This document shows, one piece after another, positions 16,697-23,961 of a DNA stretch of 24,018 nt (position 1 is the stretch's first letter; every line of letters begins with the position of its first letter). The translations under genes were made by a program, and so were the position numbers. The notes below the pieces were generated by a model. It was not told the DNA's origin and did no database searches. It was given only the letters and a program-made list of their open reading frames with translations. Origin of the DNA: Candidatus Thorarchaeota archaeon. GTDB lineage: Archaea > Asgardarchaeota > Thorarchaeia > Thorarchaeales > Thorarchaeaceae. The DNA lies in the NCBI GenBank assembly GCA_003345545.1, contig PRDH01000034.1, positions 1 through 24,018 of the forward strand, given 5' to 3'.

Positions 16697-16893
16697 TCGC
16701 CGGCCAAAGAGGCTGGCGGAGCGCTCACTGAAATATCAGTGTAGAGCTAAAGTTAGGTCCGGAGTTCAGCTGGTGTTAATCACTGAATGAAGGCACATCG
16801 GGACCCGGCTGTAAATTTGGTGCCATTCCTGATGGAGGACCGTCAATGCACTAGCTCTGGTGCCGTGCACCGATAGAGCTGATGCAATGATTG

Positions 16894-17060
16894 CAGAGGA
16901 TGGAAGTACACTGACCGAATACGTAGGATATACCTAACGTAAGTACGAAGTTATTACAAAACTACGAAGTTATTACAAAACTCCTTGGCATGATTGGTCA
17001 ATAATCAATCATGTTCACAATATTGTGGACAACAGGTAATACTGTGTCAACACATGACTA
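16894..17060 (+). other. 5' arm of the pre-23S processing stem, including the BHB half-site
   Basis: 16894-16909 pairs with 20188-20203; 16972-16985 with 20175-20187. GACAAC-AGGT-AAT-ACTGTGTCAACACA (17028-17054) pairs with TGTGTTCATACAGT-ACCT-AGA-GTTGTC (20146-20172), giving a 3-nt bulge/4-bp helix/3-nt bulge. Confidence 0.85.
16944..16981 (+). repeat. Perfect 19-bp tandem duplication TACGAAGTTATTACAAAAC x2
   Basis: Copies at 16944-16962 and 16963-16981. Confidence 0.95.
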
Positions 17061-20140
<3,080 letters not shown>

Positions 20141-20210
20141 GAAAGTGTGTTCATACAGTACCTAGAGTTGTCTCAGGAGTTCGTAATGTGCTTCCATCCT
20201 CTGATGTCTA

Positions 20211-20216
20211 TTTTTT
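20211..20216 (+). terminator. Putative oligo-T terminator of the 23S transcript
   Basis: TTTTTT shortly after the last trailer pairing block; copy 3 also ends in a T-run. Confidence 0.45.
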
Positions 20217-20256: not shown

Positions 20257-20592
20257 TTACCTATCAACCAGATTTTCAAGAAGCGTTTTGAGCGGGGGAA
20301 TATCTTCAGTAACAGTCTGCCAGACAATATCTAGATCTACGTCAAAGTAGCCATGGATCAATCTATTACGCATTCCAATCATTTCCTTCCAAGGAATATC
20401 AGGATGTTTATTCATTATGTTTTCAGACATACCTACTGCTGCTTCTCCAATAATCTCCAGTAGTCTCACAAGAGCATGTTTGAGTTTTCTGTCGTTATCT
20501 AGATCTGACCGAACTTTGTTGTGAGTGAACTCTATTACCTCAAGTACTGCATCTAACATATGTTGTATTCTTACTTTATCATCCTTCAACAT
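20257..20592 (-). CDS. hepT: HEPN (DUF86, HepT-like) RNase toxin
   Basis: LEIIGEAA, IPW..I.GMRNRLIHGY (R-x4-H-x-Y); likely start ATG 20592, overlapping the MNT stop. Confidence 0.9.
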   Translation of the reverse strand: MLKDDKVRIQHMLDAVLEVIEFTHNKVRSDLDNDRKLKHALVRLLEIIGEAAVGMSENIMNKHPDIPWKEMIGMRNRLIHGYFDVDLDIVWQTVTEDIPPLKTLLENLVDR

Positions 20593-20881
20593 ATTGAACC
20601 ACTGCCTTGCTAATGACATCTTCCCGAAAATACCTGCTTAAATCATTGGGAGTTCTCAGATCAACATTTCTTCCAAGCATTTTGCTAAGTTCATCTTGCA
20701 TACTCATCAATCTAAAGAAGCCTGGTTTTGCGTCATCGTCGAATTCTACAAGAATATCAACATCACTTTCTGAGTTGAAATCCTTGCGCAATACAGAACC
20801 AAATACTGAGAGTTTTTTAATTCCATTGCGCTTACAGAATTCCCTAATCATATTTTTTGGGATTTCAATAGCAAGAGTCAT
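20579..20881 (-). CDS. mntA: Minimal nucleotidyltransferase (MntA-like) antitoxin
   Basis: FGS-x10-DVD (GSVLRKDFNSESDVD), GRNVDL; ATG 20881 preceded by GAGGT. Confidence 0.9.
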   Translation of the reverse strand: MTLAIEIPKNMIREFCKRNGIKKLSVFGSVLRKDFNSESDVDILVEFDDDAKPGFFRLMSMQDELSKMLGRNVDLRTPNDLSRYFREDVISKAVVQYVEG

Positions 20882-20945
20882 TTTACCAACCTCTACTATT
20901 ATGGACACTCTTCCTTCAATCTCACATTATATTCTCATGCTCTTA

Positions 20946-20959
20946 AAATACTAGTATTT
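20946..20959. promoter_or_regulatory. Perfect 14-bp palindrome AAATACTAGTATTT upstream of mntA (possible operator or recombinase-binding site)
   Basis: Exact palindrome 65 bp upstream of the likely mntA start and 17 bp before repeat copy 2. Confidence 0.5.
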
Positions 20960-20976
20960 CGGTCAAGTGACATATT

Positions 20977-21078
20977 TGTACTAATGTCCGAGGCGTGCAG
21001 ACTGAAAGTGTGTTCATGCAGTACCTAGGGTTGTCAAGAAGAGTTCATTGTAGTAGCGAAGTAGTATCTCCATCCTCT
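20977..21078 (+). repeat. Direct repeat copy 2 (diverged 23S 3' end plus trailer)
   Basis: 57/59 identical over 20977-21035, then divergent but retaining GAGTTC (21041-21046) and TCCATCCTCT (21069-21078). Confidence 0.9.
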
Positions 21079-21234
21079 AGTCTTACCTATCATTTTCATC
21101 CATTCCACAATTTCAAACCCAGTGGAAGTTTTACTTGGCTTTTAGGCATAGGTTCTACGAAAGGGGTGGCTTTGCGGGGTCAGAAAAAGGAAACAATAAG
21201 TAAATATGAATCTAAGTAAAGTGGTGTATCCATT

Positions 21235-21930
21235 ATGAGAGGGGAATCACATCTGATAGCTTCATTCATGATTAGTCTGCCCACTATCTGGGCTCTGTAT
21301 AGTATGGCACCAGACATAATGATTGACGTGATAGGTTATGTCATTGGAGGCGTATTACTGGGTTGCTTACTGCCCGATGTAGATGCTTCAGATGCCAAGG
21401 TGATGCATGGATACTGGAGGCCAATTGGTCTTTTTGGAAAATACTTATTCTATAAACCAATGACGTGGATTTTGAAAACTCGTTCTGATGCATATCGGGA
21501 GCAACACCGCGGATATCTACACTCATTTATTGGTTGTTTTCTCGCAACGATTTTCTTTACGATCCCGATAGCTATCATATTTCTACATTCAACATATGTA
21601 CTGCTTCTTCCCTTAGAAACGACTATTTGGGTTTGGATTGTATGGATTGGATTACCCTTTGGTTTTCTAATGCATTTGGTTGAAGATAGCTTCACAAAGT
21701 CAGGAGTACGATGGATGTTTCCTAACGGCAAAACCTATTCAAGTCAGACGAGCACTGGAAAAAAGAGCGAGTACACTCTTCTCTCAGCATTCATCGTCAC
21801 ATATGGCATTCTCACAGTTATTGTATACATGGCGCCTCCCTCGTTTATTGTTCTATTTGGGGCTATTCTTGGATCCTTGGTTTTGTTGGGTGCGCTTTAT
21901 GCGGCTAATCCGATAATTAGTAGACTTTGA
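21235..21930 (+). CDS. Membrane-bound metal-dependent hydrolase (YdjM/DUF457-like)
   Basis: N-terminal H, LPDVD, HRGYLHS and HLVED motifs with multiple TM segments. Confidence 0.88.
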   Translation: MRGESHLIASFMISLPTIWALYSMAPDIMIDVIGYVIGGVLLGCLLPDVDASDAKVMHGYWRPIGLFGKYLFYKPMTWILKTRSDAYREQHRGYLHSFIGCFLATIFFTIPIAIIFLHSTYVLLLPLETTIWVWIVWIGLPFGFLMHLVEDSFTKSGVRWMFPNGKTYSSQTSTGKKSEYTLLSAFIVTYGILTVIVYMAPPSFIVLFGAILGSLVLLGALYAANPIISRL

Positions 21931-21954
21931 AAGTAGACTGGTGCCAAGCAAAAA

Positions 21955-21997
21955 TGACCGGAAATAGAACTGTAGAAAGTGCTACTTTTCCGGGTCA
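21955..21997. repeat. Imperfect inverted repeat just before repeat copy 3
   Basis: TGACCGGAAATAGAAC-loop-GTGCTACTTTTCCGGGTCA. Confidence 0.7.
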
Positions 21998-22003
21998 GTG
22001 AGG

Positions 22004-22136
22004 GTACCAAGCTCCGGCGAGGTATTCAGCTCACCTGTACTAATGTCCGAGGCGTGCAGACTGAAAGTGTGTTCATACAGTACCTAGAGTTGTTTCAGGA
22101 GTTCGTAATGTGCTTCCATCCTCTGATGTCTGTTTT
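22004..22136 (+). repeat. Direct repeat copy 3 (23S 3' end plus full trailer)
   Basis: Offset 1922 from copy 1; differences at 22005, 22024, 22094 and 22132. Confidence 0.95.
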
Positions 22137-22154
22137 CTAATTATCCAACTCTGA

Positions 22155-22367
22155 TTCAGTTTCTACTCATTATCCTTTACTCGCTACTATTATGTCTGTG
22201 CCAACGATACACTAGGTTTGGAAACGCAATCAGGAGTCTATGATAGCCTTCTCATATGAATTACCTGTGCAATCCCTTGTCCGCCGACAATAGTTGTCTT
22301 CTTCCCAGCAGTTGTCGGGTTTTTGATGGTTGTTCTGTTCATAAGATTTCGAAGAAGGTACAAATGA
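22155..22367 (+). pseudogene. C-terminal remnant of a membrane-anchored surface protein
   Basis: One frame reads ...RYYYVCANDTLGLETQSGVYDSLLI*ITCAIPCPPTIVVFFPAVVGFLMVVLFIRFRRRYK*: internal TGA at 22257, TM helix plus basic tail, no obvious start. Confidence 0.5.
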
Positions 22368-22517: not shown

Positions 22518-23210
22518 ATGAGCAACGGGCTTCTCACAGTCTTCTCAGAGATTGCGAATCAGTATGAGCTAGTGAATCACGTTCTTACGTTTGGCTTGGA
22601 TATTCCTTGGCGGAAGAAAGCCTCGCAGATTGCTGCTGCTGACGGTGGCACATTGTGGTTGGAGGTCTGTAGCGGAACTGGAGAAATGGCAGTCAATCTC
22701 CAGAGGCTCGCCGGTCCCGAAGCAAGAATAGTTCTTACTGATTTTTCTTTTCCCATGATTTCAAGGGCCAGAAGCAAGTCAGAACTTCGGAAGGCGTCTG
22801 TTTCTCTTGCTGACTCCTCCGGACTTCCTTTTTCCGAAAACACATTTGATCTTGTAGTAATCTCATTTGCCACAAGAAACATCACTGGAAATCGTGTGCG
22901 GTTGATGAAGTTTCTGAGAGAATTCTATCGTGTTCTGAAGCCAGGGGGTCGGTTCATCAATCTTGAAACTAGTCAGCCCAAATCAACTCCAATCCGCTTG
23001 GCATCCCACCTATACACGACAAAAGTTGTCAAGACGCTTGGGCGGCTTATCTCGGGATCGAGGACCGGATATGCCTATCTCTCATATTCGGTCACCAGAT
23101 TCTTTGATGCAGATGAGCTGTCCAAGATTCTTCATGAGGTCGGATTCTCGAAAGTCGACTACAAAACGATGACCTTTGGCGTCGTAGCCGTTCACAAAGC
23201 AGTGAAGTAG
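22518..23210 (+). CDS. UbiE/MenG-family SAM-dependent methyltransferase
   Basis: F..IA..YE..NHVLTFGLD..WR, LEVCSGTG, DFS..M, LPF....FD, ISFATRN, RVLKPGG. Confidence 0.9.
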   Translation: MSNGLLTVFSEIANQYELVNHVLTFGLDIPWRKKASQIAAADGGTLWLEVCSGTGEMAVNLQRLAGPEARIVLTDFSFPMISRARSKSELRKASVSLADSSGLPFSENTFDLVVISFATRNITGNRVRLMKFLREFYRVLKPGGRFINLETSQPKSTPIRLASHLYTTKVVKTLGRLISGSRTGYAYLSYSVTRFFDADELSKILHEVGFSKVDYKTMTFGVVAVHKAVK

Positions 23211-23346
23211 CTTCACATGTCTTCCTGAGAGAACATGCAGATGACCAAGAACAGAAGTAGTTGATTCGGGAGTTTTACGCAAAGACAAATCAACGAGAAC
23301 AGCACAGTGTACTGGCAGGTCTTTCCGACTCCGAGGTGAAAGAGGC

Positions 23347-23961
23347 GTGGATGAGGAGCTACTTTCTCGAATACTGTTTCTTGCAATCTATACTGCTTTT
23401 GGTGCGATTCGTCTTGCATACCGAATACCAGCTGCAAGGAGAGAGGGTGGGGAAAAGCATGAACTCCCACGAGCTGCGGCTCTGACACTAACCTTTGGCA
23501 TCCTCGCATACTTTGGGTGCATCATTCTCTATCTGCTCTATCTGCCATGGATTCTCTGGTTCCAGATCTCATTCCTCTCATGGATACGATGGCTTGCAGT
23601 GCCTATCGCAATCCTATGTGTGCCAGCACTGTATTGGACCCATCACATTCTCGGTAAGCAGTATTCTGCTAATCTAGAGATACAGTCAGATCATAAGGTC
23701 GTTACCAACGGACCATATAGTAGGGTTCGTCACCCGATGTACGCAATCTTCATCGTATTCTCTATCGCAATGGCACTACTAACATTGAATCTTCTCATCA
23801 TATTCTTCTCAATTCTCATATCCATCTCGTTCCCCTCTCTCGCCAAACAAGAAGAGCTGATGTTGATTGACACATTTGGTGACGACTATCGTGCATACAT
23901 GAGGAGAACTGGTAGGTTCCTGCCAAAACTCAGGCACATTTCGGAAGAATCTATGAAATGA
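23347..23961 (+). CDS. Isoprenylcysteine carboxyl methyltransferase (ICMT/STE14)-family membrane protein
   Basis: H.VVT.GPY..VRHPMY, EE..L...FG..Y..Y..RT.RFLP; SD GAGGTGA upstream. Confidence 0.88.
   Translation: MDEELLSRILFLAIYTAFGAIRLAYRIPAARREGGEKHELPRAAALTLTFGILAYFGCIILYLLYLPWILWFQISFLSWIRWLAVPIAILCVPALYWTHHILGKQYSANLEIQSDHKVVTNGPYSRVRHPMYAIFIVFSIAMALLTLNLLIIFFSILISISFPSLAKQEELMLIDTFGDDYRAYMRRTGRFLPKLRHISEESMK

Follow-up and report, generated by a model that had tools for sequence, protein, structure and literature searches.

The window analysed here, 24,018 nt in length, is an entire contig of a Thorarchaeota (Asgard) metagenome-assembled genome (MAG), labelled G000 below, of 2.69 Mb in 82 contigs (92.9% complete, 5.4% contamination). 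It carries the sole 23S rRNA gene that a search of this genome returned, with no 16S gene near it in the window. Downstream of the 23S gene lie, in order, the tail of the working gene (copy 1), a HepT/MntA toxin-antitoxin pair, a second tail (copy 2), a YdjM-family gene, a third tail (copy 3) and a flank of methyltransferase genes, and these features are collected in Table 1. The flank limits the variable region in G000, G001 and G017, and is 84-87% identical to that of G001 and 76.5% identical to that of G017. An Rfam search of 20900-22300 at E<=1 gave no match, partial tails being too short to score as rRNA.

Table 1. Features of the window around the 3' end of the 23S rRNA gene
Feature	Position	Strand	Basis or content
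5' leader, distal arm of pre-23S processing stem	16893-16909	+	pairs with trailer 20188-20203; two compensatory pairs
BHB 5' leader arm	17028-17047	+	outer GACAAC, central AGGU, bulge AAU, inner ACUGUGU
23S rRNA gene (archaeal LSU)	17067-20140	+	Rfam RF02540, 2481 bits
3'-terminal helix of 23S	20066-20120	+	Rfam consensus structure; contains pair 20083-20102 and, closed by 20090-20095, a UUCG-type loop
Copy 1, tail of the working gene	20084-20214	+	repeat comparison; Rfam places the 23S end at 20140
Current trailer (copy 1)	20141-20215	+	BHB 3' arm 20153-20172 (bulge 20164-20166), variable spacer 20173-20187, distal arm 20188-20203, then T-run
Cassette 1, toxin-antitoxin pair	20257-20908	-	HepT-like HEPN RNase and MntA-type nucleotidyltransferase
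HepT-like HEPN RNase	20257-20619	-	Pfam PF01934, E=1.3e-29
MntA-type nucleotidyltransferase	20579-20908	-	Pfam PF01909, E=1.4e-16
Copy 2, chimeric tail, probable relic	20977-21096	+	repeat to copy 1 at 20977-21035 (59 nt, 97%), then its own trailer
Horizontally acquired block	20979-22005	+	co-linear with species G014 (native 23S end, its trailer, then YdjM)
Cassette 2, YdjM-family membrane protein	21235-21930	+	Pfam PF04307, E=7e-16
Copy 3, probable relic tail from 23S position 20083/20084	22005-22137	+	core repeat 22006-22136 (131 nt, 98%)
Conserved right flank, UbiE-type and ICMT-family methyltransferases	22518-23961	+	Pfam

Two RNA structures run through the tails. In the 3'-terminal helix of the 23S rRNA the Rfam consensus pairs 20083 with 20102 within the terminal hairpin GCACC/GGUGU, and across 22 native ends the helix comprises 18 pairs, with 100% of cells paired and compensatory change at 10 of the pairs. 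None of 500 shuffles gave covariation equally high and slid controls were 31-58% paired, so that the covariation check proposed in an earlier note on this DNA, made from the letters alone, came out strongly on native ends. Pair 20090-20095, which closes a UUCG/UCCG tetraloop and is unmarked in the Rfam consensus line, covaries among C-G, G-C, A-U and U-A in native ends.

The second structure is a canonical bulge-helix-bulge (BHB) motif formed by leader and trailer in a consensus fold of 12 native pairs, which is backed by a single-sequence fold and by a leader alignment of 20 genomes. Its outer helix joins 17028-17033 with 20167-20172, the trailer bulge is AGA at 20164-20166, the central helix of 4 bp joins 17034-17037 with 20160-20163, the leader bulge occupies 17038-17040, the inner helix joins 17041-17047 with 20153-20159, and further out a distal helix joins 16894-16909 with 20188-20203. 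Two 3-nt bulges on opposite strands with a 4-bp helix between them, and a long stem that pairs the rRNA-flanking leader with the trailer (five inter-arm pairs with compensatory change in the 12 native pairs), are the marks of the archaeal pre-23S processing stem. Archaeal pre-rRNA stems with a BHB are cut by EndA and ligated by RtcB, and circular 23S transcripts are found in Asgard archaea (PMC12918454). The native leader and trailer share with that system a 3-4-3 BHB with covariation; this accounts for the conservation of the tails and leaves the duplication of their DNA unexplained. Between the stem arms, at 16945-16982 of the 23S leader, a 19-nt unit (acgaagttattacaaaact) is tandemly doubled and is present in single copy in relatives.

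Copy 3 differs from copy 1 by C20083>T22005, G20102>A22024, C20172>T22094, A20210>G22132 and T20215>C22137, and copy 2 by A20155>G21018 and A20166>G21029; copies 1 and 3 have an exact repeat of 69 nt in common. In our copy alignment all of these base differences lie where the earlier note had put them, and the consensus fold agrees with the effects it had assigned: A>G at 21018 gives U-G in the stem, A>G at 21029 falls inside the BHB bulge and C>T at 22094 gives G-U in the BHB outer helix. Two changes give wobble pairs, one affects a bulge, and there is one "compensatory" pair. Positions and structural effects stand, but taken alone they are weak evidence, since about half of all transitions in helices yield wobble pairs regardless and "structure-preserving" by itself is within chance.

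The comparison with relatives drew on a sample of 23 native 23S ends and 29 extra tails from genomes of the family. All seven differences of copies 2 and 3 are transitions to states found in native ends of 13 same-genus species. The share of possible transitions represented in natives is 34% over the span of copy 3 and 20% over that of copy 2, and a rough estimate of the chance of seven natural states in seven is ~5e-4. At pair 20083/20102 the 23 native ends have C-G in 17 and U-A in 6, with no mismatches. This bears out the claim that the variants are alleles occurring naturally in working 23S ends and trailers, and not the outcome of random decay, as every variant of copies 2 and 3 matches a natural allele when aligned to native ends of relatives. 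That they might come from other rrn copies with these tails in the same genome was the note's own objection; the own-genome search of the 2.69 Mb returned no tail copies beyond the three described here.

The origin of copy 2 can be traced further. From 20979 to 22005 the window is 94.5% identical over 1028 nt to species G014, where the matching stretch consists of the native 23S end, the trailer and then the YdjM gene directly downstream. The non-coding part at 21019-21234 has 3 mismatches only, and the 78 nt at 21019-21096 are identical to the native trailer of G014. Vertically inherited sequence sets the scale for this: G000 and G014 share 66-67% identity in the upstream flank and 91% in the 23S gene, and between G000 and its closest relative, G001, identity is 92% upstream, 97% across the 23S gene and 84-87% downstream. 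Because the block stands at 94.5% against flanks at ~66% and a 23S gene at 91%, the distal trailer of copy 2 and the YdjM block were acquired horizontally from a G014-like source. A genus search found YdjM in 4 of 28 genomes and did not find it in the closest relatives G001, G007 and G017.

At its proximal end (20977-21018) copy 2 belongs to the resident type and not to that of G014, and as the distal trailer is of the G014 type, copy 2 is, on its sequence, a chimera of a resident-type left part, a shared BHB block and a G014-type trailer at 21019-21096. The junction falls within the invariant block corresponding to 20155-20165 of copy 1. In G022, one tail has a proximal part of a third type, followed by this same G014-type trailer. 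The distal part of copy 2 had been taken for a diverged copy in which two blocks were kept; it proves instead to be a distinct natural trailer type, given the 78 nt identical to G014. The supposed unit of import, cargo followed by its own tail, likewise has to be turned around, the actual unit being a trailer followed by its downstream gene, the order native to the donor, as seen in G014.

Import along with the cargo holds for the copy 2 trailer and YdjM but finds no support for copy 3. Copy 3 is 98% identical to copy 1, the fast-evolving trailer spacer and distal arm included, and is best read as a displaced same-lineage allele with a natural A22024, not evidently foreign. Its C-G to U-A swap (22005/22024) was found as described in both changes and pairing, but T22005 lies where repeat meets cargo, and cargo flank explains it equally well. 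The cargo stays homologous to G014 through ...AGGGT, as far as 22005, and G014 likewise has T there, so the U of this U-A pair may belong to the cargo flank, or to a 2-nt microhomology, rather than to the tail. The right-hand joint, the one such joint available, reads ...AGGGT/ACC at 22005, with 0-2 nt (GT) shared. A parallel tail with the identical boundary in G002 has C opposite A.

For the HepT/MntA cassette a family search of 85 genomes at the DNA level returned distant relatives only, at 63-75% identity, and no close relative, so its donor presumably lies outside the sampled genomes. At the right end of cassette 2 (21975-22005; G014 L051:4905-4950) a hairpin with a GGGTCAGTGAGGGT motif can be matched by eye to the proximal trailer and BHB block (26 matches, three gaps). 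We rejected this hairpin as a decayed tail, its local alignment to the G014 tail being matched by 120 of 500 shuffles, and the right end of cassette 1 showed no tail-like remnant when aligned to the tail. An isolated 14-nt match to the BHB block, CAGTACCTAGAGTT, at G014 L051:6767-6780, lies 2.8 kb behind the native tail, past the YdjM and HEPN-like genes, and may be the last remnant of a tail.

Arrays of this kind are not peculiar to the window. A tail match was found in 61 of 86 family genomes, 19 of which carry two or more, with a maximum of nine. Cassettes are ~1 kb each and each is followed by a tail, as for example in G105 with four tails in 3.6 kb; such arrays look more regular than expected of random illegitimate events. 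HepT/MntA-like modules with 63-68% nucleotide identity to cassette 1 lie between 23S tails in two other genera (G105:C233:29-3616 and G065:C1:245970-255148), and toxin-antitoxin cassettes recur in 23S-tail arrays. Cargo in relatives further includes YdjM, leucine-rich-repeat proteins, glycosyltransferases, an ABC transporter ATPase, nitroreductase, methyltransferases, a TnpB-like protein and proteins of unknown kind. Our literature search found no description of rRNA-tail arrays in archaea. All genomes compared are MAGs, and chimeric assembly is a known risk at rRNA loci; an assembly product may account for the order of cassettes, but not for the cargo-tail joints or the ~10-nt chimeric junction.

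The array of G001 offers several further observations. Its working end has the covarying pairs GU..AC, and its distal-most extra tail has the CA..UG of the G000 type with 17 of 17 positions paired, which fits a displaced former end. A HEPN_RiboL-PSP-like gene in this array (L034:8249-9264) has 94.4% identity with the gene next after YdjM in G014 (L051:5168-6183) and is inverted with respect to the 23S gene. On contig C17 of G001 (L034:328-1980, minus strand) a 550-aa TnpB-like protein with a Cas12f1-like TNB domain (E=7.6e-12) is encoded, and the gene ends ~127 nt before a long tail copy that begins at 23S position 19972; the guide RNA of this TnpB-like protein, if it reads into the flank, would match the 23S end.

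Breakpoints were located at several points of the 23S end and trailer. Copy 2 and the G022 tail break within 20155-20165. In G001, tail 3 breaks at ~20141, beyond which 71 nt are 100% identical to the trailer of the window. Inside the 23S gene, at ~19912, identity between G000 and G001 falls from ~99% to 63.5%; the stretch 19912-20025 is 63.5% identical to the sister species G001 and 91% to the distant G014, and G001 and G017 have in common an insertion in this stretch. This anomaly could reflect recombination inside the 23S gene or a chimera in a MAG. The left boundaries of the extra tails are spread from 19972 to 20146.

We therefore consider, with a confidence somewhat above even, that the extra tails once were working 23S ends and trailers and stayed as relics when DNA of related Thorarchaeota recombined into the locus. 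The 23S 3' end with its processing-stem trailer, being the best-conserved sequence of the region, would serve as the homology anchor. Incoming DNA would bring a 23S end, a trailer and the donor's downstream genes, with the left crossover inside the 23S gene or the tail. On the right, the exchange would be completed either by illegitimate joining within the resident tail or by another crossover, this one in a partial tail that the donor had already. The incoming trailer would then become the working one and the old tail, truncated on its left, would be shifted downstream, so that repeated rounds would yield an array. In the window, a G014-like trailer with YdjM would have entered in a first step, leaving the older resident tail as copy 3, and the present trailer with HepT/MntA in a second, leaving copy 2 with its resident-type left and G014-type right; this stepwise history requires a donor whose tail was already mosaic. 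Natural-allele content, the foreign copy 2/YdjM block, mosaic tails and the lack of a detected integrase are the observations from which we infer the order of events and the recombination pathway. The interpretation of the earlier note thus survives in its natural working-trailer alleles and its foreign copy 2 and YdjM, and is unsupported, or has to be changed, in its import unit and the origin of copy 3.

Site-specific integration is the most serious alternative, though in our judgement a doubtful one. An unrecognised recombinase would have its attachment site in the trailer's BHB arm (around CAGTACCTAG, 20156-20165), and the tails would be duplications of that site. Every extra tail found keeps 20146-20215, two independent chimeras join within a 10-nt invariant block, the cassettes are small and regular, and the architecture resembles tandem accretion at stable-RNA genes. 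As to a fixed crossover core, the breakpoints are divided: two chimeras break in 20155-20165, but other mosaics break at ~20141 and ~19912. The junction zone of copy 2 is moreover the sole invariant stretch between two variable zones, so that the breakpoint is poorly resolved there, and selection for leader-trailer pairing could itself place surviving crossovers in 20155-20165. The import also continues the donor's native downstream DNA, unlike an element with ends of its own.

Recombinase searches point the same way. A Pfam profile search found no tyrosine or SSV-type integrase (PF00589, PF16795) in G000 (93% complete), G001, G002 or G028, and for serine recombinases (PF00239) one sub-threshold match of 19.5 bits in G000. 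Among ~40 cargo proteins from the arrays of six relatives there was no site-specific recombinase, integrase or resolvase. In these four genomes no PF00589 protein was detected, even of the XerA type, whereas PF00589 came up in 14 of 14 control genomes; G029 and G030, of the same family, do have PF00589. An unrecognised recombinase is compatible with the absence of Pfam integrases, and we also entertain, tentatively and at low probability, a dedicated Asgard gene-capture system. It would use the 23S tail as its recombination site through an unrecognised enzyme or an RNA-guided or BHB-linked process instead of general homologous recombination, and would swap the working rRNA end between species with each capture. 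Because no integrase was found, and since neither the breakpoints nor the left boundaries are constant, our best reading is recombination that is homologous or homology-facilitated and has its anchor in the conserved 23S end; it ranks above a fixed-site integrase. An RNA-mediated route through BHB splicing and reverse transcription was rejected, no reverse transcriptase having been seen in the cargo and the breakpoints not being restricted to the BHB cut site.

It is unlikely that the extra tails are kept by selection where they stand, as alternative 3' BHB partners of the single leader or as processing or termination signals for read-through of the cassettes. Copies 1, 2 and 3 all form a BHB with the leader in mini-construct folds (-63.0, -48.0 and -60.1 kcal/mol), and across the family the extra tails equal native tails in mean conservation, with a profile that parallels native ends and no distinct conserved core of their own. 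This equal conservation fits recent events, and is explicable by youth, but it equally fits maintenance by another function or enzyme. Several extras of relatives have degenerate left parts or broken pairs (7 of 11, 12 of 17 and 13 of 17 paired), which runs against structural selection at their present sites, and we read the spare tails as probable relics of various ages, in decay.

Misassembly or misbinning, in which the conserved tails of co-occurring Thorarchaeota populations were wrongly joined, we regard as very unlikely. The contamination estimate, the 69-nt exact stretch between copies 1 and 3 and the reputation of rRNA regions as trouble spots would allow it. Yet the joints of cargo and partial tails are unique sequence, beyond an assembler's invention, and the copy 2 junction lies in a block of 10-11 nt, shorter than an assembly k-mer. 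Both flanks of the contig match the closest relative G001 (92% and 84-87%), and many assemblies made independently in different studies show the same architecture. Local tandem duplication of the 23S tail with random mutation and later insertion of cargo would suit the 98% identity of copies 1 and 3, but it is extremely improbable and its random decay is rejected, since all variants are natural alleles and the copy 2 trailer with 1 kb beyond it matches the native locus of another species, G014, at 94.5-100%.

Several known systems resemble the locus in part. Integrative elements and their integrase-less derivatives, the cis-mobilizable elements, accrete in tandem at the 3' ends of tRNA and tmRNA genes. 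As in such accretion, each inserted unit is bordered by direct repeats of a stable-RNA gene's 3' end, the incomer supplies the working end while older ends are pushed distally, and the cargo is accessory and includes toxin-antitoxin genes. Here, in contrast, the target is the 23S end with its trailer, no tyrosine or serine integrase was detected in cargo or genome, left boundaries and breakpoints vary, and the import continues native downstream sequence of the donor. Chromosomal integrons and integrase-less attC clusters, archaeal ones included, were reportedly described by Ghaly et al. in 2022. Integrons and our arrays alike line up small cassettes in one orientation, separated by repeats and often bearing toxin-antitoxin modules; our arrays are without IntI (G000 has no PF00589) and without the imperfect palindromes of attC hairpins, the repeat being an rRNA gene tail of 23S end and trailer.

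Of the published analogues, the nearest are plasticity zones adjacent to rrn and flexible islands that homologous recombination drives. Homology-facilitated illegitimate recombination is known in bacteria (de Vries and Wackernagel 2002, as cited in PMC10770853), as are replacement flexible genomic islands that are swapped by homologous recombination in conserved flanks (PMC4033161). With these the locus shares a one-sided conserved anchor, foreign DNA contiguous with that anchor in donor order (20979-22005, G014) and mosaic outcomes; it differs in having as its anchor the end of an Asgard rRNA gene, and in that relic tails are left in order and become portable homology arms. The respective papers describe a hypervariable O-chain cluster between 23S and 5S in Pelagibacterales (PMC11898729) and Chlamydia's rrn-nqrF plasticity zone (PMC10715202). 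These share with the present locus a fast-changing accessory region directly behind an rRNA gene, and the portions of text consulted mention no rRNA-tail copies that partition the island, unlike here.

What is new here is allele-level evidence of exchange between species at 23S tails in Thorarchaeota, together with a concrete, testable mechanism for integrase-less 23S-tail cassette arrays in Asgard archaea. Our data suggest that the end of the 23S rRNA gene acts as a hotspot of gene exchange in Thorarchaeota, and that an essential rRNA gene end and its processing trailer are exchanged between species together with adjoining accessory genes. Mosaicism of the 23S 3' ends in these lineages has consequences for phylogeny and for quality control of MAGs. 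The spare tails would then form a readable stack of past events.
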